Assembly (NCBI RefSeq): GCF_044704955.1
Contig: NC_091985.1
Span: 204,290,001-204,354,000 of the forward strand
Length of the DNA: 64,000 bases
Direction of reading: 5' to 3'
Source of the DNA: Pristiophorus japonicus
Taxonomy: Eukaryota
Every line of letters starts with the position of its first letter. Position 1 is the stretch's first letter. The position numbers and the translations under genes were made by a program. Under the pieces are notes generated by a model, which did no database searches, was not told the DNA's origin, and saw only the letters and a list, made by a program, of their open reading frames with translations. Positions 4,662 through 58,635 of the stretch are shown in pieces.

Positions 4662-4687
4662 GGCAAAAGCATAGTGCAACCTCTACC

Positions 4688-6787
4688 TTAACCTATTGTG
4701 GGGGAGGGAGCGAAGTCTTTTGTTGAACTCCGCTCCCTCCGCAGCCCAGCGAGGAGTCCCTCGAGCTCGCGCAGCTCAAGGTGCTGCTCCTTTGTCAAGG
4801 GCCCGCCCGCGGCCAAGGTTTTAACGGCGGCGCGGACGGACCCCTTGATCAGCTCCGGCTCGGACCATTTTTCCAGGGCCAGTCGGGCTTGGTCGCGGCG
4901 ACCCCGGCTCTGGGCCAAAAAGTCCCGGAGTTCCTTTGCAGGAACGAGGAGGGCCTCAGCGGCGGCCGCGAGCAGATCCACCGCCTCCCTGGCGGTGGTC
5001 TCTAGGTCTTCACCCGCGTCCCCCACCGAGTCCCCGTCCTCCTCCGGGAGGTGGCCGCCAGCAGCCGGCCCATCGACCGCACAAGGTACGGCAAATGAAC
5101 CGGCCGCTCCAACCGGCCCTGGCACTGCCCCGATCCCACCCCCAGGATCGTCGGCAGAGGAGTCCCCACTGGGCTCTTTTAAAAATGGTGCCGGGTCGGG
5201 AAATGACAGCGGAAGGGGTTCCCCCTCCGCCCCAGGAACCGGAGAACAAGGAGAGACCCGGCCATAGGAAATCCCCAGGCCCTCCAAGTGCTCCAGCTCC
5301 AAAGTAAGGGGCGAGGGTGGGTGTTCCTCCCCCTCCCCGCTGCCACCCCCCGGCCCAGCATCTACAGTATCATTAAAATCAATTGTTTCATTCTCTGCCG
5401 GGTCGAGCAAATCCCGGGGTAAGTTGTGTATTGGCTGGGCGGGCTCAGGTTCGGCCTTTTCGGCCCCGCCCGCCTCGGTCCCCGGGACGCTCGACCCGGC
5501 GGCTACGCATTCTTCCACTGGCCCCACGCCCCCCACGACAGGCAGATCTTCCACGCCCTCCCCAGGAGGCAGCGGCTGGGCAGCCTCGACTGCCTCACCC
5601 TCCCCGGGGAAAGACTCCTCGCGCCTGCAGCGCAATTTGGGGGCGCTGGTGGGGGACGCGGGACACGCGGCGGGCACCGCCTCCTCCGCGGAGGGATGTT
5701 GTTCCCCCTCCGCCTCATTGGGGCGGTGCCTCTTTTTGTTCCTGGGGGCGCGCGGAGTCAGGGAGACCTCCATGTCTGCCGAGGCCTCCCGCTCCGCCCC
5801 CCCCTTTTCCTTTTCTTGCCCGCGCCTGGGCCCCTCTGTGGTGTTATTCAAGGGCCCGGGCACGGGCTCGGGGCACCCCGCGCTCGCCGGTGACTGGGTT
5901 GGGCTGAGCGCGGTGGTCAGACTTTCCGGCGCACCGAGGGGACCCGCCTCTAGATGTTTTTCCTTCTTCCGCGCCTTCTTTCCGCTCGGACGCTCTCCCT
6001 CCCCCCTGCCGGAGGCCCTGAAAACAAAGGCCTCCGACGATGCCCGCGCACCCATGGCTCCCGGCACGCGGACGCAACTAGGGGGAGGGGTGGCGGCGGC
6101 GCCAGCTATGGCCGCCTTCGGTGGTTTGGCGGCCTTGGAGGCGGGGCAGTTCTTGCGAACGTGCCCCACCTCCCTGCAGGCATGGCACCGCACGCCGTCC
6201 GACGTCCAGAAGACGCGGTAGGCAGTCCCCTCGTGCACCACATTAAAGTGCCCTTCTGTCAGGTCCTCCCGCGCCAGCCGGACAAAGAGCTGGCGGCGGA
6301 AGGAGAACACGTGGCGCAGGCTGTTCTCCCTGAGGCCGAGCGGTATGGGGTTGATCCCCGACCTTACCTCCCCCAGTTGGTGTAGGTGAGGGAGGAGGAG
6401 CTCAGCGGAAACAAAGGGCGGGACGTTTGACACGATGACCCTCTGCGCGGTGGCCTCGAGAGGGTCCACCGGCAGGAACGTCCCGCCCACCGTGAGCCCC
6501 TTTTCAAGGGCCAGGGACACCGCCCGCTCCGACCCCAGGAAGAACACGGCCTTCCCAGACATCTTGGAGGCTGCGACAATGGCCGAGGGGCCGACTACCC
6601 CAGCCATCGCCCGCACGCACTCCTCGATGGTCATTGTGGGGTGAGTGTAGCTCTTGACCCCGTGTTTTTTCGTAATTAACCTAAATGGTGGCAGGGCAGC
6701 GGGTGGCGCAGGAGGGGCCGTGGAAGCGGTTGCCACCTGCGCATACGTCCTTGCTGGCCCTGCCACCGGCGTGGATGGGGTCGCCAT
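4688..6787 (-). CDS. Tx1-type ORF1 nucleic-acid-binding protein
   Basis: RRM-like segment RVIVSNVPPFVSAELL, gag-like knuckle CHACREVGHVRKNC, long Pro/Glu/Gly-rich low-complexity region; immediately upstream of ORF2. Confidence 0.92.
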   Translation of the reverse strand: MATPSTPVAGPARTYAQVATASTAPPAPPAALPPFRLITKKHGVKSYTHPTMTIEECVRAMAGVVGPSAIVAASKMSGKAVFFLGSERAVSLALEKGLTVGGTFLPVDPLEATAQRVIVSNVPPFVSAELLLPHLHQLGEVRSGINPIPLGLRENSLRHVFSFRRQLFVRLAREDLTEGHFNVVHEGTAYRVFWTSDGVRCHACREVGHVRKNCPASKAAKPPKAAIAGAAATPPPSCVRVPGAMGARASSEAFVFRASGRGEGERPSGKKARKKEKHLEAGPLGAPESLTTALSPTQSPASAGCPEPVPGPLNNTTEGPRRGQEKEKGGAEREASADMEVSLTPRAPRNKKRHRPNEAEGEQHPSAEEAVPAACPASPTSAPKLRCRREESFPGEGEAVEAAQPLPPGEGVEDLPVVGGVGPVEECVAAGSSVPGTEAGGAEKAEPEPAQPIHNLPRDLLDPAENETIDFNDTVDAGPGGGSGEGEEHPPSPLTLELEHLEGLGISYGRVSPCSPVPGAEGEPLPLSFPDPAPFLKEPSGDSSADDPGGGIGAVPGPVGAAGSFAVPCAVDGPAAGGHLPEEDGDSVGDAGEDLETTAREAVDLLAAAAEALLVPAKELRDFLAQSRGRRDQARLALEKWSEPELIKGSVRAAVKTLAAGGPLTKEQHLELRELEGLLAGLRRERSSTKDFAPSPTIG

Positions 6788-7734
6788 CACGGGGTCCCTT
6801 TAAGGGCTACACCCACCCCAAAGTCACAGGCCTTAATGGTCTTAATTGGCCTCTTGTATAATGACTGAGCAGAGGAGCCCTTAATGAGGCACACCTCTCC
6901 CCTAGTTGGCAATTGGGGAGGGGCCTTGCTCCCTCTGCTCAGTTGTCTTAAATTGTTTGTTTTTTAAATTAAATTTGGAAGGAAGGGCTCTCAGAGAGAG
7001 AGGGGAGAAACAGAGTAACAGAGAAAAGAGAGAGGGGGGTGGGAAGGGGGGGGGGCTGCGAGGGCAGGTCTCTCGTCGCAGCTGTGGGTGGGTGCACTCC
7101 CCAGATGGCAAAACACAAAAGTCTTTGAGGTGGTCTTCAGGTGGGGGGAGAAGATGTCTTCACCTGGGGTAGCTGGAGCCACCAGGCACTCCTAACGATC
7201 TTTAATTGGATGATTAAGAAAAACAACAATCTTCAGCCTGGTAGCTCCAGCTATCCCAGGCTAGGCAAATGTGGGGGGGGTGGGGGGGGTGGGGGGGGTT
7301 CCAATTGTGGGGGGGGCCTAGTTGTAAGCAAGGCCCCCACACACACTACCACACACACACACACCCCCCGCGATGTTCCGGCCCTCAGTGGTCTTCTTTC
7401 CTCCCCCCACCGATACAACAAAGTCTGTTTGGGGAAATGCACCCACACCCACCTGTAGAATGTAGAGTCTCCCTCCTTCCACACTGGATATTGTTGGTCT
7501 TTTCCCCCTCTCTCCAACTCCTTGCAGAAATGATAAAGTTGTTTAAAGTTTTCTGCTTTTTCCTCTCCCTCTGGATAAAAGTTGTGTTGAAGCCCCTTCC
7601 TTCCTTCTCCTCCTGGGCTGGTCTCAGGGCTCTCCAGGCAGGAGCTCAAGTTGCTAGCAGCTCCTCTCACTGCTCACAGCTCCAACTGAGCAGGACACGC
7701 CTCTACTGCTGCACAATTGGTCCTTGTGCTTGAA

Positions 7735-8150
7735 ACTCTTTTAGGAGTCTACCTGCAAAACATAAACAACATTAAACTGTGCCACCCGACCTGGGTGACA
7801 CAGCAGACATTTTCAAGCCCCTTTTTTTTTTTGGTTTTTGGTTTTTTTTTTTGGGGCGCTAAAATCAAATTTTTCCAGTGCCCCCTATAAAAGGGAAGGG
7901 GACACTAAAAGCACCGGCAATTAAAACAAATTAACTTTAAAACGTAAAATCAAATTAAAATTTGGTTGCCGGGCGTGATGATGCACTCCAGTCCCTCCGG
8001 TGCCCACCTCTCGCGGAAGGCCGCGAGCGTACCGGTGGACACCGCGTGCTCCATCTCCAAGGACACCCTGGACCGGATGTAAGAGCGGAAGAGAGGCAGG
8101 CAGTCAGGTTGAACGACCCCCTCGACCGCCCGCTGCCTGGACCGGCTGAT
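7735..8150 (-). mobile_element. 5'-truncated Tx1 copy A
   Basis: Matches 528-962 (3' UTR plus end of ORF2); bounded by spacers 7720-7734 and 8151-8165. Confidence 0.95.
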
Positions 8151-8165
8151 GTCCTTGTGCTTGAA

Positions 8166-8586
8166 ACTCTTTTAGGAGTCTACCTGCAAAACATAAACAA
8201 TATTAAACTGTGCCACCCGACCTGGGTGACACAGCAGACATTTTCAAGCCCCTTTTTTTTTTTTGGTTTTTTTTTTTTTTTTTTTTGGGGCGCTAAAATC
8301 AAATTTTTCCAGTGCCCCCTATAAAAGGAGAGGGGGACACTAAAAACACCGGCAATTAAAACAAATTAAACTTTAAAACGTAAAATCAAATTAAAATTTG
8401 GTTGCCGGGCGTGATGATGCACTCCAGTCCCTCCGGTGCCCACCTCTCGCGGAAGGCCGCGAGCGTACCGGTGGACACCGCGTGCTCCATCTCCAAGGAC
8501 ACCCTGGACCGGATGTAAGAGCGGAAGAGAGGCAGGCAGTCAGGTTGAACGACCCCCTCGACCGCCCGCTGCCTGGACCGGCTGAT
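8166..8586 (-). mobile_element. 5'-truncated Tx1 copy B
   Basis: Same truncation point (GGACCGGCTGAT); spacer at 8587-8601. Confidence 0.95.
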
Positions 8587-8601
8587 GTCCTTGTGCTTGA
8601 A

Positions 8602-9049
8602 ACTCTTTTAGAGTCTACCTGTGAAAACATAAAACAATAACGGTGCCACCCAACCTGGGTGACACTCCAGACATTTACAAGGCCCTTTTTTTCCCCCCCT
8701 TTTTTTTTTTTTTTTTTTTTTGTGTTTTTCTTTTTTTGGTTTTTTTTTTGGGCACTAAAATCACAATTTTTCCCCAGTGCCCCCTATAAAAGGGAAGGGG
8801 ACACTAAAAGCACCGGCAATTAAAACAAATTAACTTTAAAACGTAAAATCAAATTAAAATTTGGTTGCCGGGCGTGATGATGCACTCCAGTCCCTCCGGT
8901 GCCCACCTCTCGCGGAAGGCCGCGAGCGTACCGGTGGACACCGCGTGCTCCATCTCCAAGGACACCCTGGACCGGATGTAAGAGCGGAAGAGAGGCAGGC
9001 AGTCAGGTTGAACGACCCCCTCGACCGCCCGCTGCCTGGACCGGCTGAT
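8602..9049 (-). mobile_element. 5'-truncated Tx1 copy C (variant 3' UTR)
   Basis: Same truncation point; 3' UTR has diagnostic variants (TTTAGAG, GACACTCCAG, TTTACAAGG); spacer at 9050-9064. Confidence 0.95.
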
Positions 9050-9064
9050 GTCCTTGTGCTTGAA

Positions 9065-9520
9065 ACTCTTTTAGAGTCTACCTGCGAAAACATAAACATT
9101 AAACTGTGCCACCCGACCTGGGTGACACTCCAGACATTTACAAGGCCCATTTTTTTTTTTCCCCCCTTTTTTGTGTTTTTTTTTTTTTTGTTTTTTCTTT
9201 TTTTTTTGTTTTTTTTTTTTGGGCACTAAAATCACAATTTTTCCCCAGTGCCCCCTATAAAAGGGAAGGGGACACTAAAAGCACCGGCAATTAAAACAAA
9301 TTAACTTTAAAACGTAAAATCAAATTAAAATTTGGTTGCCGGGCGTGATGATGCACTCCAGTCCCTCCGGTGCCCACCTCTCGCGGAAGGCCGCGAGCGT
9401 ACCGGTGGACACCGCGTGCTCCATCTCCAAGGACACCCTGGACCGGATGTAAGAGCGGAAGAGAGGCAGGCAGTCAGGTTGAACGACCCCCTCGACCGCC
9501 CGCTGCCTGGACCGGCTGAT
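9065..9520 (-). mobile_element. 5'-truncated Tx1 copy D (variant 3' UTR)
   Basis: Same truncation point; followed by spacer 9521-9535, which runs directly into CR1 sequence. Confidence 0.95.
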
Positions 9521-10235
9521 GTCCTTGTGCTTGAATGACAGAAGGATAGTTTGCAGGTGAAGCAGGCAATCAGGAAGGTGAATGGAATGCTGGCCTTCAT
9601 TGCGAGAGGGATGGAGTACAAAAGCAGGGAGGTCCTTCTGCAACTGTATAGGGTATTGGTGAGGCCGCACCTGGAGTACTGCGTGCAGTTTTGGTCGCCT
9701 TACTTAAGGAAGGATATACTGGCTTTGGAGGGGGTACAGAGATGATTCACTTGGTTGATTCCGGAGATGAGGGGGTTACCTTATGATGATAGATTGAGTA
9801 GACTGGGTCTTTACTCGTTGGAGTTCAGAAGGATGAGGGGTGATCTTATAGAAACATTCAAAATCATGAAAGGGATCGACAAGATAGAGGCAGAGAGGTT
9901 GTTTCCACTGGTCGGGGAGACTAGAACTCGGGGGCACAGCCTCAAAATACGGGGGAGCCAATTTAAAACCGAGTTGAGAAGGAATTTCTTCTCCCAGAGG
10001 GTTGTGAATCTGTGGAATTCTCTGCCCAGGGAAGCAGTTGAGGCTAGCTCATTGAATGTATTCAAGTCACAGATAGATAGATTTTTAACCAATAAGGGAA
10101 TTAAGGGTTACGGGGACCAGCCGGATAAGTGGAGCTGAGTCCATAGCCAGATCAGCCATGATCTTATTGAATGGCGGAGCAGGCTCGAGGGGCTCGATGG
10201 CCTACTCCTGTTCCTAATTCTTATGTTCTTATGTA
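9521..10235 (+). mobile_element. CR1/HER1-type LINE 3' part (host of the Tx1 array)
   Basis: Encodes [41 protein letters not shown]; ends with GGCCTACTCCTG and a TTCTTATG-type tail. Confidence 0.93.
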
Positions 10236-13354: not shown

Positions 13355-14437
13355 TCAGTCCTGGATGTGATTAACAGCAGAATCCACACCTGCAGTGTGA
13401 ACTCGCTGGTGTCTCAGTAGGTGGGACGACTGAATGAATCCCTTCCCACACTCAGAGCAGGTGAACGGCATCTCTGCAGTGTGAGTGCGTTGGTGTGCCA
13501 GCAGGTTGAATGAACGAGTGAATCTCTTCCCACACTCAGAACAGGTGAACGGCCTCTCCCCAGTGTGAGTGCGTTGGTGTGTCATCAGATCCTTTCTGCT
13601 TTTAAAGCTCTTCTCACAGTCAGGACATTTAAACGGTCTCTTATTGGTGTGAACAAGTTGGTGTTCAGTGAGCTGGGATGAACGAGTGCATGCCTTCCCA
13701 CACACAGAACAGGTAAAATGTTTCTCCCCGGTGTGAACAGGTTGGTGTGCAGTGAGCTGGCATGAACGAGCGAATTCCATACCACACATGGAACACGTGA
13801 ACGGCCTTTCCCCGGTGTGAACTCGCTGGTGTTCAGTGAGGATGGATGAACGAGCGAATCCCTTCCCACACACAGAGCAGATGAACGGCCTCTCCCCGCT
13901 GTGAACTCGCTGGTGTCTCAGCTGATGAGATGATTTAACAAACCCTTTCCCACATATGGAGCAGATGAATGGTCTCTCCCCAGTATGAACTCGCTGGTGT
14001 TCAGTGAGGCGTGAAGAACAAGTGAATTCCTTCCCACACACGGAGCAGATGAATGGTTTCTCCCCAGTGTGAACTCGCTGGTGCTCAGTGAGGTTGGATG
14101 ACTGCCTGAACCTCTTCTCGCAGTAAGAGCAACTGAACGGCCTCTCCCCAGTGTGAACTCGTTGGTGTTGATTTAGTTCACGAGAGGTTTTAAAGCTGTT
14201 CCCACAGTCAGAGCATTTAAAAGGTCTCTCATTCGTGTGAACTCGCTGGTGTGATAGAAGGTGAGCTGAACGAATGAATCCCTTCCCACACACAGGGCAG
14301 GTGAACGGCCTCTCCCCGGTGTGACGACGTCGATGAGTTTCCAGCTCAGAGGGGCAATTGAATCCCTTCCCACAATCTCCGCATTCCCATGGTTTCTCCG
14401 TGATGTGGGTGTCCTTGTGTCTCTCCAGGTTGTACAA
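13355..14437 (-). pseudogene. C2H2 zinc-finger gene with 12 fingers; open frame but probable start loss
   Basis: 12 CxxC-12-HxxxH units with TGERP linkers; the paralog's MEKPW start is ACG (TEKPW) here, with in-frame TGA stops upstream; acceptor-like TTTTACAG|G near 14620. Confidence 0.7.
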
Positions 14438-41011: not shown

Positions 41012-42940
41012 ACATAGAAACATAGAAACATAGAAAATAGGTGCAGGAGTAGGCCATTCGGCCCTTCTAGCCTGCACCGCCATTCAATGAGTTCATGGCT
41101 GAACATTCAACTTCAGTACCCCATTCCTGCTTTCTCGCCATACCCCTTGATCCCCCTAGCAGTAAGGACCTCATCTAACTCCTTTTTGAATATATTTAGT
41201 GAATTGGCCTCAACAACTTTCTGTGGTAGAGAATTCCACAGGTTCACCACTCTCTGGGTGAAGAAGTTCCTCCGCATCTCGGTCCTAAATGGCTTACCCC
41301 TTATCCTTAGACTGTGACCCCTGGTTCTGGACTTCCCCAACATTGGGAACATTCTTCCTGCATCTAACCTGTCTAACCCCGTCAGAATTTTATATGTTTC
41401 TATGAGGTCCCCTCTCATTCTTCTGAACTCCAGTGAATACAAGCCCAGTTGATCCAGTCTTTCTTGATAGGTCAGTCCCGCCATCCCGGGAATCAGTCTG
41501 GTGAACCTTCGCTGCACTCCCTCAATAGCAAGAATGTCCTTCCTCAGGTTAGGAGACCAAAACTGTACACAATACTCCAGGTGTGGCCTCACCAATGCCC
41601 TGTACAACTGTAGCAACACCTCCCTGCCCCTGTACTCAAATCCCCTTGCTATGAAGGCCAACATGCCATTTGCTTTCTTAACCGCCTGCTGCACCTGCAT
41701 GCCAACCTTCAATGACTGATGTACCATGACACCCAGGTCTCTTTGCACCTCCCCTTTTCCTAATCTGTCACCATTCAGATAATAGTCTGTCTCTCTGTTT
41801 TTACCACCAAAGTGGATAACCTCACATTTATCCACATTATACTTCATCTGCCATGCATTTTCCCACTCACCTAACCTATCCAAGTCGCTCTGCAGCCTCA
41901 CAGCATCCTCCTCGCAGCTCATACTGCCACCCAACTTAGTGTCATCCGCAAATTTGGAGATACTACATTTAATCCCCTCATCTAAATCATTAATGTACAG
42001 TGTAAACAGCTGGGGCCCCAGCACAGAACCTTGCGGTACCCCACTAGTCACTGCCTGCCATTCTGAAAAGTACCCATTTACTCCTACTCTTTGCTTCCTG
42101 TCTGACAACCAGTTCTCAATCCATGTCAGTACACTACCCCCAATCCCATGTGCTCTAACTTTGCACATCAATCTCTTGTGTGGGACCTTGTCGAACGCCT
42201 TCTGAAAGTCCAAATATACCACATCAACTGGTTCTCCCTTATCCACTCTACTGGAAACATCCTCAAAAAATTCCAGAAGATTTGTCAAGCATGATTTCCC
42301 TTTCACAAATCCATGCTGACTTGGACCTATCATGTCACCTCTTTCCAAATGCACTGCTATGACATCCTTAATAATTGATTCCATCATTTTACCCACTACC
42401 GATGTCAGGCTGACCGGTCTATAATTCCCTGTTTTCTCTCTCCCTCCTTTTTTAAAAAGTGGGGTTACATTGGCTACCCTCCACTCCATAGGAACTGATC
42501 CAGAGTCAATGGAATGTTGGAAAATGACTGTCAACGCATCCACTATTTCCAAGGCCACCTCCTTAAGTACTCTGGGATGCAGTCCATCAGGCCCTGGGGA
42601 TTTATCGGCCTTCAATCCCATCAATTTCCCCAACACAATTTCCCGGCTAATAAGGATTTCCCTCAGTTCCTCCTCCTTACTAGACCCCCCGACCCCTTTT
42701 ATAACCGGAAGGTTGTTCGTGTCCTCCTTCGTGAATACCGAACCAAAGTACTTGTTCAATTGGTCCGCCATTTCTTTGTTCCCCGTTATGACTTCCCCTG
42801 ATTCTGACTGCAGGGGACCTACATTTGTCTTTACTAACCTTTTTCTCTTTACATATCTATAGAAACTTTTGCAATCCGTCTTAATGTTCCCTGCAAGCTT
42901 CTTCTCATACTCCATTTTCCCTGCCCTAATCAAACCCTTT
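41012..42940 (-). mobile_element. Young 5'-truncated CR1/HER1 LINE with an uninterrupted 606-aa RT frame (41113-42933)
   Basis: PGPDG, YLDFQKAFDKVPH, GVPQGSVLGP, FADD; (TTTCTATG)n tail. Confidence 0.96.
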
Positions 42941-43449
42941 GAAACATCGGAGGGACGGCGGAGTAGGAGTGTTTGCTGGGACTGTGCAGGAGTTAATATC
43001 TGACAGAAACTGTCCCAGTTTAGTTGAATCAGAGTGAAACACTCGGTTACTGAGAGTAATACCGAACGGCCCTGAGCTGCAAGATTACAGGGAGTACAAC
43101 AGGCAAGCGAGGGTTAAATGTGGGACCTTGTTTCTCTCACTCTCTGACACTGTCCCGCAGTGTGGGATTAATAATGTGTCTGTATGTGGTACAATATCAG
43201 TGAGAGAGGGGACTGTATCTTCTGTCTCCCCAATGGGAACTTTCAGGATAAAACCGGACCTCACAGATCAATTGGGACAGATACCGTGTAAGTCTTTCTG
43301 TGTCTCACCGTCCTGCCTCGATCTCTCCGATCTCTCACTTAGCACTCTCCCCCATCTCTGACTCTGTTACAATCCTTTTCTCTTGTACTGTCTGTGAAGG
43401 GGGGATACTGTTATTTCGCGTGATGTGGAAACACTTGTGAGTACAACAC

Positions 43450-44062: not shown

Positions 44063-45221
44063 ATACTGTTTCTGTTTCTCTCTCTGGTGCTATACATGAC
44101 GGTGTGGCACTGTTACTGAGCGTAATATGGAAACACTGATACCAAGTGTAAGACTGATAATGTGTCTGTCTCTTTCTCTCTCTTTCGGTGGTGCTATACA
44201 TGAATGTGTGATACTATTATTGAGAGTAATATTGAGACACAGTTAGGGAGTTTAAGACTGATTCTGTGTCTGTCTCTCTGTCGCTCCCTCTGATAGCCAT
44301 CTCTGGGTGGTGAGTATGGGATGGATAGGATACCAGTTACTGTTATATGTCCCTCATTTTCGGAGGAGAGAGAGAGAGAGAGACAAAGAGAGGGTGGAGG
44401 GGCGGTGAACTCATAATTTCTATTTTCACGTTAATCAAACATATTTCTGCGTGCGAACAATGTAATAACTTAACAGCATATATGGGTTAAGCCAGCCTCT
44501 GCTGTGATTGGCTCCTGCCCCTGAATCTGGGGAACAGACACTCTGAGGAACGCCGGCCTCAGAGTGTTTAACACTTACTGAGCTAGGAAACTACAACTAA
44601 CCCCGAGAATCGGCAGCACAGGCCGAGCGGAGAGGTAACCCTGTGCTGGGAGCTGTAAATCTGGGACAGTTTGTGCTGTGAATGTGCAGATGTGAACATT
44701 GTGTGAGCGAGAGTGTGTTAAAGGGGCGGGCCGGTGAGACGAATGTCACTTTGTTTGTGTCATCGCCGGATTCCAGAGTCCCGCTTGTGTAAAATTCAAA
44801 GATTTTCCTGTCACAGGATCGCCCTGCTGCCCTGCTCAGGTCTAAAGTGGGAATTAAACGTCAAGTTTGATGTGATTTCAAATTTCAATCGAAAAACAGA
44901 GAAAATGTCCGCGATCGGGTGAGAGAGCGCGATCAGTGCAGCAATGCTGCCATTAATTCGGAGGAAGCTTTCTCGACAACAAACATCCCGGTCTTCGGGA
45001 CAGAAAGAGGCCAGTCTGGGAATCTGGAGGGCCCGGGTTGAATTGGAATCGGACAGTTAATGAGGAGAGAGAAACACAGAGAGGCTGGAGGGGCGGGGAG
45101 CTGACAGCAGGATGTCTCGCCCCGTCCGCTCGCTGCCTTTAAGTTGCTCTGTGCCGCCGCCTCCCGTTTCATTTCTGACCGAGCTCTGACTGTCAGAGAG
45201 ATTTTCCACAGAGTCGCCGAC

Positions 45222-45920
45222 ATGACTGACACTTCAGCCGCCGAAACAGCTCCTTCTGCCGCCGCCGCTCAAGCCAAGGCCCCCCGCAAGAAGAAGAAGG
45301 CAGCTCCCCGCTCCAAGCCAGCCGGCCCCACGTTGGGCGAACAGATCCTCAAGGTTGTGACCGATGGCAGCGATCGCAAGGGGATGTCTCTGGCCGCGAT
45401 AAAGAAGGCTCTGGCGGCCAAAGGCGTGGATGTGGAGAAGCGCGGGTCCCAGATCAGGTTCAGTATCAAGAGGAATGTGACAAATGGCTTCCTGGTGCAG
45501 ACCAAGGGCACGGGCGCCTCGGGCTCCTTCAAAGTCGCTAAGAAGGAAAACCAGGGGAAAGTGGGAAGGAAGGTGAATAAACCAGCAGCCAAGAACTCTC
45601 CAGCCAAGAAACCAGCAGCCAAGAAATCTCCAGCCAAGAAACCAGCAGCCAAGAAATCTCCGGCCAAGAAACCAGCAGCCAAGAAATCTCCGGCCAAGAA
45701 ACCAGCAGCCAAGAAATCTCCGGCCAAGAAAACGAGCACCAAGAAGGCGCTAACAGTAAAAAAGTCAGCGAAAGCGGCGGCTGGGAAGAAGGCGGCAGCG
45801 GCGAAGCCCAAGAGCCCCAAGAAGGCCTCGGGCGCAAAGGTGAAGGCGGCCAAAAAGGTGGGAAAACCGAGGGCCAAGGCCAAATCAACAAAACCCAAGA
45901 AACCAGCGCTCAAAAAGTAA
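45222..45920 (+). CDS. H1: Histone H1 (replication-dependent type)
   Basis: Globular domain ...SLAAIKKAL...[14 protein letters not shown] and Lys/Ala/Pro tail; H1-box AAACACA (~45072) and GC box upstream; 3' stem-loop. Confidence 0.95.
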
Positions 45921-45955
45921 ATAAAAAGTGCAACTTGTAAACATCTGAACCCAAA

Positions 45956-45971
45956 GGCTCTTCTCAGAGCC
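45956..45971 (+). terminator. Histone 3' stem-loop (H1)
   Basis: GGCTCTTCTCAGAGCC followed by ACCCA and a purine-rich AAAAGAG element. Confidence 0.95.
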
Positions 45972-46720
45972 ACCCACGCCTCTCAGAAAAGAGTTGATCC
46001 CCGAATCAAATGATCCCTGTCCCGGGGCCGGGCTCAGATTTCAGACAGAAATCATTGAACATGAAGCCAGGATCCCTGGTGACTCGCTGACATTGGCTGC
46101 ACCCACCCCTCCCCCAGTGTCTGCAATAAAACACACAGAGAATGGGATGTCCGGCCCGGGCCTCACTGTAACTGGGGATGTGTTCAGCTCCAGTCTCAGT
46201 TCCTGGTCATTGTCATTTCACAGATTCAGGGGGAGAGTCTGTGAGACGGTGACACTGGCGGAGATACCCCGCCTCACAACTCAAACCCCAAACACCACAT
46301 TCTCCAAATCAGCTGGAATAAGGTGTTTGAAAACTGCTGAACCCGTCTGTGAGAGGAAGTGTGGGGAGATGGAACAAGGTCTGAGATTGACAGGGAAGGG
46401 GCTGTATATAGGCGGGAATATTCGCGATTGTTAATTGTAGCGGGACTTTATTTAAAAGCTTCAGGTTCCTGGAAGCTTTGAATATAAATTCCGAGTCTGT
46501 TTCGGTTCTATTGTCGGAAAACGGTTTGAAATTAGCGGCTGCAGAAAGCTGGAGCGGAGCTGGAAGATCAGAGGCCGCTCTCTGCTCTGTCTGTCAATCT
46601 TGACTATGTCTCCTCCCCTTCCCGCCTCTCTCACTCTGCGCTTTCTCAGTCAGGTCGGCTCCGGCTCTATAAAAAGGAGCCGGCAGCCGTTCACTTCTCA
46701 TTCAGCGGCAGTTTAAGTGA

Positions 46721-47044
<324 letters not shown>

Positions 47045-47890
47045 ATAACTCGACCCTTTTCCCCCAAACACAACACAAAGGCTCTTCTAAGAGCCACCCA
47101 CCGGCACACAGAGAGAGCAGCGACCTGGGGATCGGAGCGCGGACAGTTTGGTTGGGAAATGGTTTCGGCTGTTTAATTAATGGAAAGAAAGGTTTGGATT
47201 TATATTGCGCCTTTCACGACCACCGAACGTCTCAAGACAGAAAAATAGAAAATAGGTGCAGGAGTAGGCCATTCGGCCCTTCGAGCCTGCACCGCCATTC
47301 AACAAGATCACAGCTGATCACCTCCCCACGCCCCCTCCACACTCCCCAACCCCCGCCCCCCCCCCCCTCAGCCGCAAGGACCACATCCAATGAACAAGAC
47401 CAATGAAGTACTTTTGGAGTGTAGTCTCTAGGAATATGGGAATTATTAAATATTTTACAACTATTGTAAATATGAGAGATCAGAAACTCCGGCTGACAGT
47501 CACAATTACCGGGCAGGATACACAGTCCTCTTTACACATTACAGTCTCCCCTCACAGATAATTCCTGTCATGTGAGGTTTCTGTGTGAGAATCGGTTAAG
47601 TGGGACGGCACTGGCGGGATCGATGCGGGACTTTATGTTTACAGGAAGCAGTGACCGCGGATTTATTCCCGCCCGGTACAGACGGATCAGGGAATGGAAC
47701 ATAATTCAAACCGGAATGTGACAGAATGGGATTGGTGACTTATAATGGGGCACAATCGCCGTTATAAAGAGCGGGATTCTTAAATTGCTGGCGGGAAATT
47801 AGATTTTATTTAATCTCTGTTGGTTGATATTCTGAAATTGGCGGGCTTTTTGAAAATTGACCAAATGTCAGTTTCAGTTCAGCCAATTAG

Positions 47891-48478
<588 letters not shown>

Positions 48479-49580
48479 ACTCCCCCTGCCCCGGCTCCAA
48501 GCTTCAGCACCAAGTGCAACAACGGCTCTTTTCAGAGCCACCAAATCAGCAAAGGAAAGAGCTGCGATCTACTGTAACCAGAGCTTCGTGTTGTTCATTA
48601 ACCCATTGTAGGGACGGGCAGAGGGTGTGGGACTGATTACTGATCGTGTGTTCATATACCAGCTCGGTTCACATGGGAATTATTGACGATTAACTGGTGA
48701 GTCTTTTAATATTTTCAGAAACTGACATCGGCTTTGCGTCGCTCTGACCTCGAGTTCCCCGGGGCAGAGCACAGATTTCCTCATTCGGTGTTGCCGGAGA
48801 ATGGGGGCAGGTAGATCTGGGAAGCACTGCAATGGACTCGGGTCCTGTATGTGTGCATCGCTCGCTGCTCCAGTGCGGTCTAAACTGACCGGCTTAGCGG
48901 AGAAATACAGAGCCCGGGAACGGCCAGAGCTCCCGAGAACAAAATCAGCATTCAAACTATCTCAAACCAGACCAGAATTAAACTAGGCCCTTTTATTACT
49001 ACATTAATTCATCATTGCCGACTCTCGTTTTCAGACAGATTAAAGAATATTTAAAGAACCGGTGGCAGTATTTATACAATTGTTGAGTGACAACTGTAGT
49101 TCAATTATTCGCTGTTAACGGGAAGTGTATGTGTGAGCAGAGAACCGTAATGCAGAGACCGGGAACTGAAAACTCCCGCGTACGGATAAGGGGAAAGCCA
49201 TTTAGGACTGAGATGAGGAGAAACTTATTCACTCAGAGTTGTTAACCTGTGGAATTCCCTACCGCAGAGTTGTTGATGCCAGTTCGTTACATATATTCAA
49301 GAGGGAGTTAAATGTGGCCCTTATGGCTAAAGGGATATGGAGAGAAAGCAGGAAAGGGGTACTGAGGGAATAATCAGCTATGATCTTATTGAATGGTGGT
49401 GCAGGCTCGAAGGCCTACTCCTGCACCTATTTTCTATGTTTCCAGGTCTAAAACAGGCCCATCTATCGGTACATGAATTAAAGGGCTCTGACTCCATTAA
49501 GACAGTAAGCATCCCCTTCACAGATACTGTGGGTGGCTCTGAAAAGAGCCTTTGGGTTATTAGATTAAATCTTGTCCGCT

Positions 49581-49976
<396 letters not shown>

Positions 49977-50923
49977 TCACAAGTTCAGACAAAGAATGAG
50001 AAACTCCTCCCACATCTGCCCTTCTTATACATTCTGGAGGGATGCAGGGAGCGAACTTGTGATTGGTCGCTCTGAAGTGGATTTCATTGGTCTTTTCCGC
50101 TGACCAATCACCGTCTGTTTAGCCCGCCAATGTAAACAGGGCGAAAATTACTGTTCGACTGCCAACGAATCTTCAATTTCAAAAACCCCGCCAATAATTT
50201 TTACAATGCGGATTATGTTAATAAATTCAACATTAGCCAAAGATTTCCACACTTTTTATTTCCTTTTGCCGTATTCTTTATTGCCTTCCAAATTCCAGGA
50301 TGTTACAATCAGGATTAAATTCGGGTTCAGTTTCAAACGTTCTGTAACGGGACACATTCCAGCTCAATCTTTGTACAATTTGGGAATCACAGATCATGGA
50401 TCGATCATCCGCACAGGCGGCAGTGAGACCAGAACTGGGAGTTCTTCTGTGAAAAGAGGGACAGAGGGTTCAAACTCCCTGTTCTGGTCTCTGTAAGAAC
50501 TCCCAGTCTGGGCTGTTGCACTCGGAATCTCGGATTAATAAGCGGGTTGACCCGAACTAGAATTTTTTTTATATTGTAAAGGGTTTGAGAGAGAATGAGG
50601 TGACTAAAGTCTGAGTTTCACCTCCTAAAACAAGATCATAATTCATTGGCAGGCGACCAGGGACAGTGTGTGCAGTTTACTGGGAGGAAAATTCATCAGA
50701 GAAGCTAAGGTTGAACCGGACAGTAAAACCGCTTATCTGAGAATTCAAATCTAAATCTACAGCTGGAATTTTAAATGCTGTCAAACACACTTGCTCAGGA
50801 AATAACTACAGTAAATTGAGTTTAAAGGGTGATGTGTTTGTGCAGCTCTTTCAGAGACGTTGTGGGTGGCTCTTAAAAGAGCCGTTGTGTTTAGGGTTTG
50901 TTGTGTCAGGACAACGTGGAGTT

Positions 50924-51301
50924 TTACTTGGAGCTGGTGTACTTGGTCACCGCCTTTGTCCCTTCCGATACGGCGTGCTTGGCCAGCTCCCCGGGTAGCA
51001 GCAGACGCACGGCGGTCTGGATCTCCCGGGAGCTGATGGTGCGGCGCTTGTTGTAATGGGCCAGGCGGGAAGCCTCACCTGCGATGCGCTCGAAAATATC
51101 GTTCACAAAAGAGTTCATGATGCCCATGGCCTTGGAGGAGATGCCGGTGTCGGGGTGAACCTGCTTCATCACTTTGTAGATGTAGATGGAGTAACTCTCC
51201 TTCCTCGACTTCCTGCGCTTCTTACCGCCCTTTGGTGGTGTTTTCTTGATCACTTTCTTGGCGCCTTTCTTGGCAGTAACTGATTTCTTCTCTTCAGGCA
51301 T
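50924..51301 (-). CDS. H2B: Histone H2B
   Basis: MPEEKK...[11 protein letters not shown]...KYTSSK; TATATAA, octamer-like ATTAGCAT and CCAAT upstream; stem-loop at 50868-50883. Confidence 0.97.
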
Positions 51302-51824
51302 CGTCTTGTTCAATCCAACCCAGACATGACGTAAATTTAGCTCGGAGCTCGCATTATATAGGCAGCCCCACACTCCGCCCACAGCCCTATGCTAATGACG
51401 GATGGGTGAAGGCAACAATTGTGATTGGTTCACTCACTGCGTTGTCAATTTCTATTGTTCTGTAATTCTCTGATTGGATGTTTAAAGAGACCAATCAGAT
51501 TTACTGCTCGCCACAATCTCAAATTCTTCAATTAGGTCATCAGTTACATCCCCTCCCGACTTATACTCTGTTCTTTATCGATCTAGATTTCTACATGTTT
51601 GACAGACATTGACCGGTTTGTAACCGAGATTGCCTGAGGGCCACTTCTGGTCAGGACTTGGAAGTCTATGAGGGCAAAAGACCCTCAATGTCCTTCCTCC
51701 CTGATGCTGCCTTCCTCCCACCGTTTAATTAAACACCTTTCTTATCTTTCACTGCTGTAACTACATTAGTTGTTTCAGTGTTACCTTCACCTGGAATATG
51801 CCGTACCTTCTGTGCCGTAAAGGG

Positions 51825-52110
51825 CCTATTTCCCTTAGCACAGGAGGCATAAATTTAAAGTAATTGGTAGAAGATTTAGAGGGGAAATATCTTCACGCAG
51901 AGGGTGGCTGCGCTCTGGAACTCACTGCCTGAAAGGGTGGTAGAGGCAGAAACCCTCACCACATTTAAAACTACTTGGATGTGCACTTGAAGTGCCGTAA
52001 CCTGCAGGGTTACGGACCTAGAGCTGGAAAGTGGGATTCGGCTGGATAGCCTTTTGTTGGCCGGCACGGACACGATGGGCCGAAGTGGCCTCATTCCGTG
52101 TTGTAAGCTT
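51825..52110 (+). mobile_element. CR1 3' fragment
   Basis: Similar to 16320-16610. Confidence 0.8.
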
Positions 52111-52242
52111 CGATGATAAATATCTATAATTCTGAAACTAAAAGGATATTCCGTCCATCGTGCATATGCTGATTTAAAATATCTATCGATACCGAACAAA
52201 ATGTAAATGAACTATATCTCCCTCCCTCCCCCCGTGAGGCGG

Positions 52243-52384
52243 TGGGTGGGACTTAGAAGAGCCTTTGCTTTGTGCTTGGGGGAAGAGAGTCCCGTTGAAT
52301 CCATAGAAAGTGCGGCCCTGCCGTTTCAGAGTGTACACCACATCCATGGCAGTGACCGTCTTGCGCTTGGCTGCTCAGTGTAGG
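52243..52384 (-). pseudogene. H4: H4 3' fragment with deletions and a damaged stem-loop
   Basis: [25 protein letters not shown] remnant. Confidence 0.9.
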
Positions 52385-52811
52385 CCTAAACTGACCGGCT
52401 TAGGAGAAAATACACAGCCCGGAACGACTGGAGCTCCCGGGAACAGAACCAGCATTCAAACTCTCAAACCAGACCAGAATTAAACTGGGCCCTTTTAATA
52501 ACCGCCGACTTTCTTCATACAGCTTTCATTGATAAGATTAAATATTTAGGGAACCGGTTGCGGTATTTATACAAGTTTTGAGTCTCTGACAACTGTAGTT
52601 TAATTATTAGCTGCTAACTAAAACAGTTTGTGAGCAGAAAACCATAATGCAGATACCAGGAACTGAAAACTCCCGCATACAGGTCTGAAATAGACCAATT
52701 TATCGGTATCTGAACTCAAGGTCTCCATTAATACAGTAAGGAGCCCTTTCACAGATACTGTGAGTGGCTCTGAAAAGAGCCTTTGGGTTATTAGTTTAAA
52801 TCTTGTCCGCT

Positions 52812-53255
<444 letters not shown>

Positions 53256-54586
53256 TTATCCCTTCTGGAGGGATGCAGGGAGCGAACTTGTGATTGGTCA
53301 CTCTGTCGTGGATTTCATTGGCCGTTTCCGATGACCAATCACAGCCTGTCTAGTCCACCAATGAAAGGAGGGCGGAAATTACTGGTTCCCAACAGCCAGA
53401 ACCTAACGATTTTTTAAATTCAAAAATCCCGCCAATAATTGTGAAAATTGCGGATTGAGTTAGTAACTTCACCATTAGCCAAATACTTCAAAACACTTTT
53501 TGTTTCCTTTTGTCTTATTCCATATTTCCCTTGCAAATTCCAGCCTGTAACAATTAGGATTAAATTCGGCTTCAGCTTCAAACTGTCTGTAACGGGCGGG
53601 ACTCAGTCCCCACTGATTCTGTAACGGGACACATTCCAGCTCCATCTTCGTAAAAGTGAACTTGTTTTCACAGGAGCTGCTGTGGGAGTGAGACCAGAAC
53701 TGAGAGTCCTTCTGTAAAAAGAGAAGAGGGACAGGGTGTTCAAACTGCCCCTGTTCCAGTCTCTAAGAACTCCCATTCTGGGTTGTTACACTGCGGGGAG
53801 TCTCGGGTTAATAAACGGACTGAGCGCAACGGAATAAAAAAAACTCGTAAAAAGGGCTTGAGTGAGAATGTGACTGAAATCGGAGTTTCCCCGCCCCCCA
53901 AAATAAATTCGTCGGCAGGCGCTGTGAATGAACGGGTCTGAGAACAAAGGGAAAGCGACCAGGGACCGTGTTTGTAGTTTACTCACTGCAGGAAATTCCA
54001 GCGACGCCAAGGTCAAGCCGGTCAGTGAAGCTACTTATGAGAATTCAAAACTAAATCTACAGCTGGAACTACAAAGGTTTTCACACACACTTGTTCAGGA
54101 AATAATTACAGTAAATTCAGTCTAAAGGGTGATGTTTGTGCAGCTCTTTCAATTATGTTGTGGGTGGCTCTTAAAAGAGCCGTTGTGTTTGGGGTTTGTT
54201 CTGTCAGGACAGCGTGGAGTTTTACTTGGAGCTGGTGTATTTGGTCACCGCCTTTGACCCTTCCGACACGGCGTGCTTGGCCAGCTCCCCGGGCAGCAGC
54301 AGGCGCACGGCGGTCTGGATCTCCCGGGAACTGATGGTGCGACGCTTGTTGTAATGGGCCAGGCGGGAAGCCTCACCCGCAATGCGCTCGAAAATATTAT
54401 TCACAAACGAGTTCATGATGCCCATGGCCTTGGAGGAGATGCCGGTGTCGGGGTGAACCTGCTTCATCACTTTGTAGATGTAGATAGCATAACTCTCCTT
54501 CCTCGAATTTCGGCGCTTCTTGCCGCCATTTGGTGATGTTTTTTTGATGACTTTTTTGGCACCCTTTTTCGAAGCTGGTTTCTTTT

Positions 54587-54896
54587 TTTATTATTCGTTG
54601 CCAATCTTTCCAATTCTTTGTGAGATCATAAACGCCAGAGGTCACCTTGCGCCCATCAAGGATCACTCTGCGCCAATGCTCTTAGCCAAAAGGCCTCGAG
54701 CCCAAGCACCGTTCCTGGAAGTACTGCAATATCAGGTTCGTGCCATGGAGGTGGATGGGTCAAGCCCCACACCCACCTCCTATTTCCAAAAAGCATAAGA
54801 GAACCACCTTCCTGATCCAGGGAGAACCACTTTCTGGTCATGGTTATTCCCCTGTCAGGTCAGTTACGCATGATCTTAGCCAAAAAACCGAGAAGC
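54587..54896 (-). mobile_element. U2/U1-snRNA-derived SINE-like element, copy 1
   Basis: Minus strand: U2 5' end, U1 5' region, U2 3' half, second U2 stem-loop I, unique body, A-rich tail; flanked by target duplication. Confidence 0.88.
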
Positions 54897-54907
54897 TGGT
54901 TTCTTTT

Positions 54908-55258
54908 TTTTAAAATTCGTAGCCAATCGTTCCAATTCTTTGTCAAATCACAAACGCCAGAGGTCACCTTGGGCCCATTCAAGGATCACTCTGCGCCAAT
55001 GCTCTTAGCCAAAAGGCCTAGAGCCACTGCACTGTTCCTGGAAGTACTGCAATACCAGGTTCGTGCCATGGAGGTGGATAGGTCAGGTCCCCCACACACC
55101 TCCGTGGAGGTGGATGGGTCAAACCACCCCACCCACCTCCTATTTCCAAAAAAGCAAGCATATACCTTCCTGATCCAGGGAGAACCACCTTGGGGTTATG
55201 GTGGTTACTCCCCTGTCAGGTCAGTTACGCATGATCTTAGCCAAAAGGCCGAGAAGCG
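54908..55258 (-). mobile_element. U2/U1-snRNA-derived SINE-like element, copy 2
   Basis: Starts CGCTTCTCGGCCTTTTGGCTAAGATCA (U2 nt 3-29); contains CCTGGTATTGCAGTACTTCCAGGAAC (U2 stem-loop IV). Confidence 0.9.
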
Positions 55259-55858
55259 GGTTTCTTTTCCTCAGGCATCGTCTTGTTCAGTCAGGTAGAT
55301 ATGAAGGAAATTTTGCTCCGGGCTCGCATTATGTAGGTAGCCCCACACTCTGCCCACAACCTTATGCTAATGACGGATGGGTGAAGGCAATGACTGTGAT
55401 TGGTTCATTGGCTGCGTTGTCAATTTCCATTGTTCTGTATCTCTCTGATTGGTATCTTTAAACATCCAATCAGATTTATTGTTTGCCACAATCTCAAATT
55501 CTTAAATTAGGTCATCAATGACATCCCCTCCCGATTTATATTCCGTTTTTGTTTCTATTCTGCTCTCAGGCAAAAATGGTTAATGACGGCCGGACTTATG
55601 AGGAAGGTTCTTTCACGTTTTTTTCTATATATACATTCAATAATCTGAACAGCTGTGTTTGTCGATCTACATTTCTACATGTTCGAGACATTGACCGGTT
55701 TGTAACCGAGATTTCCTGAGGGTCACTTCTGATCAGGACTTGGGAGTCCTTCTATGAGGGCAAGGGACCCTCACTGTTCTTCTGCCCTGATGCTGCCTTC
55801 CTCCCATCGTTTAATTCAACACCTTTCTTATCTGTCACTGCTGTAACATGGATGTAAC

Positions 55859-57120
55859 AGCATGGATTTATGAAGGGGAAGTCATGTTTGACAAATTTGC
55901 TGGAATTCTTTGAGGATGTCACGCACAGGGTGGATAATGGGGAAGTAGTGGATGTGGTGTATTTGGACTTCCAGAACGCATTTGACAAGGTGCCACATAA
56001 AAGGTTACTGACTGCACAAGATAAAAGTTCACGGGGTTGGGGGTAATATATTAGCATGGATAGAGGATTGGCTAACAAACAGAAACCAGAGAGTGGGGAT
56101 AAATGGTTCATTCCCGGGTTGGCAATCAGTAACCAAGGGGATGCCACAGGGATCAGTGCTAGGACCCCAACTATTTATGATCTATATTAACGACTTGGAA
56201 GAAGGGACCGAGAGTAACGCAGCCAAGTTTGCTGACGATACAAAGATAGGAGGAAAAGCAATGGGTGAGGAGGACACAAATTCTGCAAAAGGACATAGAC
56301 AGGCTAAGTGAGTGAGCAAGGATTTGGCAGATGGAGTATAATATTGGAAAGTGTGAGGTCATGCTCTTTGATTTGTGCAAGTGCAAGTTATTATTTTAAT
56401 GGTGAAAGATTGCAAAGTGCTGCAGTGCAGCGGGACCTGGGGGTACTTGTGCATGAAACACAAAAGGTTAGTATGCAGGTACAGCAAGTGATCAGGAAGG
56501 CCAATGGAATCTGGCCTTTATTGCAAAGGGGATGGAGTATAAAAGCAGGGAAGTCTTGCTACAGTTGTACAGGGTATTGGTGAGGCCACACCTGGAATAC
56601 TTCATGCAGTTTTGGTTTCTATATTTACAAAAAGGATATACTTGCTTTGGAGGCAGTTCAGAGAAGTTTCACAAGGTTGATTCCAGAATGAGGGGGTTGA
56701 CTTGAGGAAAGGTAGAGTAGGTTGGGCTTCTACTCATTGGAATTCAGAAGAATGAGAGGTGATCTTATCGAAACATATAAGATTATGAGGGGGCTTAACA
56801 AGGTGGATGCAGAGAGGATGTTTCCACTGCTAGGGGAAACTAGAACTAGAGGGCTTAATCTTAGAATAAGAGGTCGCACATTTAAAACTGAGATGAGGAG
56901 AAATTTCTTCTCTGAGGATTGTGAATCTGTGGAATTCGCTGCCTCAGAGAGCTGGGACATTGAATAAAATTAAGACAGAAACAGACAGTTTCTTAATGAT
57001 AAGGGAATATGGGGCAGGGAAGTAGACCAGAGTCCATGATCGTATTAAATGGCGGAGCAGGCTCGAGGGGCCGTATGGCCTACATTTGCTCCTATTTCTT
57101 ATGTTTTTATGTTTTTATGT
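55859..57120 (+). mobile_element. CR1 RT/3' fragment (frameshifted)
   Basis: PQGSVLGPQLF, KFADDTK, QRDLGVLVHETQ, RRMRGDLIE. Confidence 0.93.
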
Positions 57121-57396
57121 TCTAACTACATTAGTTTTTTCAGTATTACCTTCATCTGGAATGCCCCGTAAATGTCTATGATTTGAAGACTAAAAGGACA
57201 TTCTGTCCATCGTTTATATGCTGATTTAAAACACCTAACACCACAATATAGATCTTGGCAAAAAACATATCTATACAGAACAAAATGTAAATCAACGATC
57301 TCGCCCCCGTTCCCCAGGTCACTGCTCTCTCTGTGAAGAGGTGGGTGGCTCTGAGAAGAGCCTTTGTGTTGTGTTTGGGGGAAAGGGTCACGTTAT

Positions 57397-57701
<305 letters not shown>

Positions 57702-58635
57702 GATGATTCTTTACTGAAATCGCCGCTGAATGTTAATCTCTCGCCTTACCCATTGTCTGTTGAGACCACCAATGAAACGAGGGTGGAAATTCCTGTCCTC
57801 AACAGTCACACCTCGAACTATTTTTAATTTCAAAAACACCGCCAATAATTTTTTAAAGTGCGGATTATGTTAATAAATGCACCATTAGCCAAAGGTTTAC
57901 AAACAGGTTTTACTTCCTTTTATTTTATTCCATATTTCCCTTACTAATTCCAGGCTGTTACAATCAAAATTAAATTCGCGTTCACTGTCAATCTGTCTGT
58001 AACGGACGGCAATCAATCCCCACTGATTCTGTAACAGGACACATTCCAGCTCAAACTGTGTAAAAGTTGGGAATCACAAATCATGGATTGATCTTCCGCA
58101 CAGGCGGGAGTGAGACCAGAACTGGGAGCCCTTATGTGAAAAGGGAAGAGGGATAGAGTGTTCACACTGCTCCCGTTCTGGTCTCTGTACGAACTCCCAT
58201 TCTGGGTTTTTACATTGCAGGGAGTCCCGAGTTAATAAACAGATTGACCGTAACAGGAATTGAAAAATAAATTTGTAAAGGGCTTGCGAGAGAATGAGGT
58301 GACTGAAATCTGAGCCTCATTTCCTAAACAAGCTCTTAATTCCTCGGCAGGCGCTGTAAATGGGAACGAGCGACAAGGAATCGTGTTTGTAGCTTGAATG
58401 GTGGGAAATTCAACAGCGGTCCTAACGTCGAACCAGACAGTGAAGCTGCTTATGAGAATTCAAAACTAACTCCACAGCTGGAACTGCAAAGGTTCCCAAA
58501 CACACTTGTTCAGGAAATAATTACAGAATATTGAGTCTAAAGGGTGATGCGCTTTAGGTCTTTCAGAGAGGTTGTGGGTGGCTCTTAAAAGAGCCGTTGT
58601 GTTTCTGTTTTTTTCTCTCAGGACAGCGTGGAGTT

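Follow-up and report, generated by a model that had tools for sequence, protein, structure and literature searches.

Two copies of a U2/U1-derived SINE inserted successively at one H2B codon of Pristiophorus japonicus, probably by a Keno-type LINE

The interrupted H2B gene

In the window, the whole stretch of 64,000 nucleotides of the Pristiophorus japonicus genome that was analysed, a histone cluster with H1, H3, H2A, H2B and H4 genes and eight 3′ stem-loops occupies positions 45105-58600, and some of its H4 and H2B copies look broken. One H2B gene holds two different SINE copies at the same nucleotide, which raises the question of how two elements came to share a single base of a coding sequence. 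In the model that we consider probable, both were placed there successively, at one nick in codon 4, by the reverse transcriptase of a Keno-type LINE, using RNA predicted to come from SINE copies that have captured U2 promoters.

The insert had been noticed in a sequence-only reading through 16-base repeats, which are found exactly where they had been placed: GAAGCTGGTTTCTTTT at 54571 and 54892 and GAAGCGGGTTTCTTTT at 55253, with no further occurrences in the window. The real target duplication is AAAAGAAACC, 10 bp on the minus strand in H2B codon 4, and it is common to both SINE copies. The remaining 6 bases of the repeat represent target/element microhomology (GCTTC) in the case of copy 1, and the element head beginning at U2 nt 3 in the case of copy 2, in agreement with the earlier assignment of the variant base in the third repeat to that U2 position.

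Along the minus strand, on which all features of the locus lie, the H2B start is followed by AAAAGAAACC, SINE copy 2, again AAAAGAAACC, SINE copy 1, a last AAAAGAAACC and the remaining H2B. The H2B start (55259-55278) runs from the ATG to codon 7 and closes with the head-side duplication (55259-55268). Copy 2 (54908-55258), on the head side and second to insert, is composed of U2 nt 3-29, a U1-like part, an Sm-like U-rich site (55146-55153), a doubled stem-loop III (duplicated arms at 55066-55125) and stem-loop IV, after which come a second U2 head fragment (54999-55022), the tail and an A tract. Beyond the middle duplication (54898-54907), copy 1 (54587-54896), on the tail side and first to insert, has its GCTTC microhomology junction at 54892-54896, one stem-loop III and an internal second U2 head fragment at 54676-54695. 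The tail-side duplication (54577-54586) belongs to the remaining coding sequence, which extends through the stop codon (54222-54586), and the histone 3′ stem-loop of the interrupted gene lies at 54141-54186 (Rfam Histone3, 38.4 bits). Removal of the insert restores an open H2B frame, as had been claimed, with 124 codons ending in ...KYTSSK. With 58.9 and 56.8 bits, both SINE copies exceed the U2 cut-off of Rfam, and the U1-like part is present in both at sub-threshold level (E 0.0025 and 0.0059). They also have in common the Sm-like site, stem-loops III and IV, a tail of unique sequence and the A tract.

A SINEU-like family

Both inserted copies belong to a U2/U1-derived, SINEU-like SINE, likened to SINEU by its structure and by its presumed mobilisation by a Tx1-clade LINE. 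The element is 310-351 bp long, A-tailed and dispersed, the genome contains 5,472 exact matches to its 23-base tail pattern, and target duplications of at least 7 bp were found at 67 of 111 sites. Its head derives from U2 and not from tRNA, 7SL or 5S, and T4 and T5-6 runs occur inside it, which places it outside the classical Pol III SINEs.

SINEU-1 to -3 were described from crocodilians, where they are targeted to Mariner-N4 by Tx1-Mar (Kojima 2015, PMC4494074). As far as the accessible text of that paper describes them, they share with our element a short, non-coding U1/U2 patchwork with an A tail, oligo-T runs and repeatedly added U2/U1 pieces, as well as tandem copies round one target duplication and mobilisation, apparently also in our case, by a Tx1-clade LINE without a shared tail. 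On the other hand, the presumed partner keeps the U2 target here, copies are present inside U2 genes at +1, and stacks occur at unrelated dispersed sites and in H2B, with their polarity shown. The element targets U2, H2B and a Gypsy element as well as a variety of sites; a preference for Mariner-N4 was not found, so the element is not one of SINEU-1 to -3. No further SINEU host is named in the accessible parts of a 2017 review (PMC5381603) and a 2018 paper (PMC5786205), and our literature search, which stopped short of Repbase and subscription journals, found no such element shown outside crocodilians. The present family extends SINEU-like elements beyond that group.

In the set of 101 copies with a complete 3′ end, the start lies within the first 19 bases in 47 and immediately 3′ of the Sm-like site in 35. 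Both hairpins are kept in 35 of 51 copies truncated after the Sm-like site, a pattern that would be more in keeping with an Sm ring as the obstacle to the enzyme than with a stall at the hairpins.

Independent insertions and the growth of stacks

Two neighbouring copies could also go back to a single insertion that was duplicated in tandem on the spot and then decayed, and duplication at the scale of the whole locus did happen later, as the dimer is present at five paralogous loci with 99% identity in the 5.9-Gb genome. The two copies themselves, however, are not a tandem duplicate, because each has closer relatives on other contigs: the best matches elsewhere reach 95.8% for copy 1 and 98.8% for copy 2, while the neighbours differ from each other at 28 of 308 aligned bases, with 46 gap columns in addition. 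The divergence and the doubled stem-loop III of copy 2, both pointed out in the sequence-only reading, are borne out, but these differences are subfamily traits, the doubled arms reflecting no local event, and the 5′ junctions of the two copies are also unlike. As both copies have nearer kin elsewhere, tandem duplication is refuted and retains next to no probability.

Sequential, site-preferring insertion, as first proposed for this locus, is supported by the copies not being closest relatives, by H2B paralogs having been hit separately, and by a later third copy in one paralog of the dimer (L003). That copy is truncated and sits on the head side of the dimer at the same nick, its target duplication taking in the head base of copy 2. 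Compared with its best match, 20 of 45 A have become G, with a single further change, an RNA-editing-like signature, which we read as putative hyperediting of the RNA intermediate.

Head-to-tail stacks of two or three copies were found at 14 of 87 distinct unselected sites, drawn from the first 100 tail matches listed with three listed places left out, and within 1.5-2 kb of these 87 sites no other nick clearly held a further copy. The direction of growth can be read from duplication lengths in 26 well-parsed neighbour pairs (32 parsed, of which 6 mis-seeded ones were dropped, with 10 stacks unparsed and one pair common to paralogs). The head-side duplication was shorter than the tail-side one in 11 pairs, equal in 15 and longer in none, and in the 15 equal pairs the duplication runs on into the head of the resident copy. 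It follows from these lengths that stacks grow on the head side and that copy 1 of the window came first. An age proxy, nested insertions included, agrees weakly with this direction (head side younger in 46 cases, tail side younger in 13, with 12 ties); some of the subfamily labels assigned in that comparison were wrong and carry no weight here.

Alternatively, stacks could be built in a single episode by repeated priming at one nick, and two of them (L193 and L199) indeed hold near-identical copies with identical junctions. Yet the third H2B copy is present in only one of the five paralogs of the dimer, and stacks mix subfamilies, the tail-side place being taken by an old full-U2 family in all four head-to-tail cases (L018, L023, L044 and L061). 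Mixed-age stacks already contradict such an origin, which we hold to be very unlikely. In the older family (these four loci and L241-L258), a near-complete U2 precedes another U2 head, which ends near nt 38, and younger copies enter its members both at the head and at the internal Keno site. Two other structures were seen beside stacked or single copies: at L209, an A tract alone has inserted next to the head of a SINE copy and is flanked by a target duplication of its own, and at L246 (upstream of 1500) five tandem 41-nt repeats of U2 head plus target region precede a SINE stack.

Successive insertion had originally been explained by the identity of the H2B bases GCTTC with the U2 5′ end, each insertion thereby regenerating its site. 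This identity does account for the microhomology of copy 1, but it is the target duplication that restores the site; regeneration via GCTTC does not hold, since stacks also occur at unrelated sequences and one H2B event, with a 5′ extension described below, lies in a paralog that lacks GCTTC today. Sequential stacking alone is already known: tandem SINEU copies round one target duplication were read as sequential insertions (Kojima 2015, PMC4494074), and tandem insertion in U2 genes was reported for Utopia (PMC4640811, PMC4494074). What is new here is the probable Keno partnership, the candidate copies under U2 promoters, the polarity of the stacks and the H2B hot spot.

A probable partner LINE of Keno type

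Keno, as characterised in the available text of two papers, is a U2-specific member of the Tx1 clade with an APE endonuclease (PMC4640811, PMC4494074), and the site that it shares with Utopia lies before U2 nt 39 (PMC4640811). In the shark genome, A tracts joined to U2 nt 39 give 95 matches, comprising SINE in true U2 genes, SINE in the older full-U2 family and a LINE end. Full-length copies of this LINE are inserted in the tandem U2 arrays at U2 nt 38|39; they begin with a U2 head at +1 and encode an ORF1 of 584 aa with a zinc knuckle and an ORF2 of 1,147 aa with APE and RT domains. Typed by site and domains, the LINE resembles Keno in its two ORFs, its APE and RT and its insertion at U2 nt 38|39, and differs from it in that its specificity is relaxed here and that it likely carries a SINE. 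Matches to the LINE tail number 447, many of them dispersed, and by exact tail counts the SINE is about twelve times as numerous. Among the first 30 tail matches listed, 3 abut a SINE head and 4 are dispersed ends in repeat hot spots used by the SINE.

The pairing of the two elements is based on shared sites, because they have no 3′ tail in common. Judged by the U2 site, the hot spots and the stacks that they share, the Keno-type Tx1-clade LINE likely moves the SINE, presumably through recognition of its poly(A).

The window itself contains another Tx1 LINE, full-length on the minus strand (762-6799), with an open ORF1 of 703 aa and ORF2 of 1,306 aa, and four short 3′ ends of its family are stacked upstream (7194-9613, minus strand). 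The sequence-only reading saw at H2B the same array-forming logic as in the Tx1 cluster. Sequential stacking is supported at H2B, but the likely driver there is the other, Keno-type LINE; the Tx1 element of the window was rejected as the SINE partner, as it shows no tail similarity.

Related to this, R2 and the R2 SIDEs of 28S rRNA genes have target-derived 5′ sequence that anneals to the target, which leads to uniform 5′ junctions (PMC3774820, PMC3414825). Like the SIDEs, our SINE is probably a non-autonomous rider of a target-specific LINE, with transcription from the target gene predicted. According to the accessible descriptions, however, R2 depends on a restriction-like endonuclease, on co-transcription by Pol I and on a ribozyme, and it is the LINE from which SIDEs originate, whereas the SINE described here derives from the target RNA itself and is spread genome-wide.

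Recurrent use of single nicks

The first 20 bases are identical in 91 H2B genes, of which 70 are uninterrupted and 21 carry an interruption. Together with 12 interrupted loci that fall outside the 20-mer pattern, 33 of the 103 loci examined are interrupted, one histone codon having thus been knocked out repeatedly. By junction, subfamily and paralog background, 12 insertion events can be distinguished at codon 4, although conversion may connect a few of them; ten fall at one nick at the resolution of the A run, one 1 base upstream and one five bases downstream. Haplotype duplicates may be present among the small contigs. The same 13-mer occurs 393 times genome-wide. SINE ends preceding this duplication are located in H2B in 28 of 29 cases, with the remaining one in a different context, and no SINE was found at the ~300 non-H2B sites carrying the 13-mer. 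Because these sites are empty, context beyond the motif matters. The window also holds a second H2B type, without the target site and therefore unsuited as a control.

Enrichment in histone genes in general, for which a check had been proposed, was not found: the 43 H1/H2A/H3/H4 matches within 145 kb of cluster, in a survey where 7 of 14 regions were chosen for having an H2B insertion, are SINE-free. A preference for histone loci as such was rejected on this basis, with one further event located in an H2B promoter. There, a SINE lies beside a CCAAT box, ~200 bp upstream of an intact H2B gene (L311 and L321, ~450-830). In a separate group of loci (L128, L137 and L148, ~1500-1920), H2B holds a truncated SINE that has lost its tail where a 3′ fragment belonging to the window's Tx1 family cuts it off.

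The insertion-site motif is RY|AW, 3.2 bits over 67 sites (78 called, 11 of them dropped as short or mis-called, and 33 uncalled). This motif predicts a re-hit enrichment of ~22-fold, compared with the thousands-fold observed, and a long sequence motif was rejected as the cause of re-hits, 3.2 bits being far too weak. Two other candidates were also rejected. A target hairpin produced only a small energy shift across the nick (p 0.002 for the top strand, 0.026 for the bottom), possibly due to G+C, and no shift for the flanks alone; likeness to the U2 target beyond the core amounted to 8.6 versus 8.2 of 26 bases, with H2B scoring 6. Head microhomology showed a slight rise at real targets (3.6 versus 3.2 nt, p 0.002) and none when both zones were scored (p 0.23).

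A second hot spot is a single base of a Gypsy element, where 56 of 61 pattern matches are true junctions and 5,394 sites are empty, so that ~1% are filled. Stacks make up 6 of the 26 filled loci examined, while ~0.5% would be expected by arithmetic. These counts bear on the possibility that certain nicks are intrinsically hot, through local chromatin or long-range sequence context, and that a resident copy adds nothing. Nine first hits at H2B codon 4 without a resident, the SINE-free 13-mer sites outside H2B, the additional event in an H2B promoter, and an H2B re-hit number (2) not clearly above the first-hit rate are all in line with such hot nicks. However, the Gypsy sites are identical over 24 nt and rarely filled, yet filled ones are often stacked, the ~60 RY|AW sites per kb that adjoin occupied sites have received no insertions, and the other histone genes surveyed are likewise free of SINE. 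Hot nicks as the whole explanation therefore seem unlikely to us.

In the model favoured here, in which the resident copy contributes, the LINE endonuclease would nick RY|AW, a relaxed form of the U2 target GT|AT, and prime on the A tail of the SINE. As an insertion would keep the original upstream flank together with an intact duplication only on the head side, it is this side that would be re-cut, and the resident head would supply homology for joining the new cDNA, making occupied sites much likelier to be hit again. Homology-assisted 5′ joining has a precedent in R2 (PMC3774820). Homology joining cannot account for all stacking, because several head-side copies (L031, L094 and L105) were joined by short microhomology and not by long homology. 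The slightness of the microhomology enrichment at targets and the H2B event without GCTTC also weigh against the model. At H2B codon 4, an A-rich priming end, the GCTTC match to the element head and an active promoter-proximal position could together create the hot spot, the heat of which is only partly explained. Recurrent insertion at a single base with a motif of about 3 bits bears on presence/absence SINE markers, which are assumed to be homoplasy-free, and also on how LINE targeting makes its choice after the nick.

U2 arrays as candidate sources

The same homology, acting inside a U2 gene, would fuse the SINE to +1 and bring it under the external U2 promoter. Seventeen SINE copies do begin at +1 of U2 genes and are preceded by the upstream flank that intact genes have. 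All belong to the youngest subfamily, with 15 identical over 338 bases and two differing at two sites, and their A tracts measure 26-116 bases. Dispersed members of the youngest subfamily match the array copies at 98.5-99.6%, and one H2B insertion (L174) matches the majority array copy except at the two sites that set array copies L291/L292 apart. The 17 copies are candidate source genes, proposed from sequence comparison, and a possible answer to the question of SINEU transcription, which Kojima 2015 left open while proposing Mariner-N4 read-through (PMC4494074); their sole promoter evidence is the common upstream flank, beyond which no promoter element was identified. With candidate sources at U2 +1 and an intact partner LINE, the question of how a promoterless snRNA-derived SINE is transcribed becomes testable. 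The U2 genes at L271-L276 form two clusters with unlike upstream flanks (C19 type, with a unit of ~770 bp, and C9 type), and many units are interrupted by LINE or SINE.

It could also be argued that the U2-gene copies are sinks and not sources, the SINE being transcribed by read-through from other flanks. As U2 nt 38|39 is the preferred target, young copies would gather there anyway, and the identity of 15 copies may have been spread by array homogenisation. Furthermore, one SINE in H2B (L354 and L355, 1366-1417) carries a 52-nt 5′ extension ending in GGCT, like the U2 upstream flank; no source of the extension was found among the loci retrieved, and this event without GCTTC points to another source. 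Against sinks, the array copies start exactly at +1 with the flank of intact U2 genes, dispersed copies of full length have their start at U2 +1 or shortly after it, as in the 47 of 101 copies mentioned above, and the youngest dispersed copies are very close to the array copies. We consider sinks a rather doubtful reading, and sources under U2 promoters remain the preferred one. The H2B promoter was rejected as a SINE source, as each of the 91 20-mers from the H2B start maps to the C9 cluster or to a small contig.

A more tentative extension, which we would give somewhat less than an even chance, is that the SINE impersonates U2. Such an element would take over U2 promoters by homology, its RNA would load an Sm ring, its copies would become landing pads, and turnover of the U2 arrays would replace the source genes, thus driving the succession of subfamilies. 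Loading of the Sm ring would explain the sharp truncation peak beside the Sm site.

Elsewhere in the window, a CR1-like RT frame of 666 aa lies at 41113-43113, and an exon with a C2H2 zinc-finger array of 360 aa at 13355-14437.
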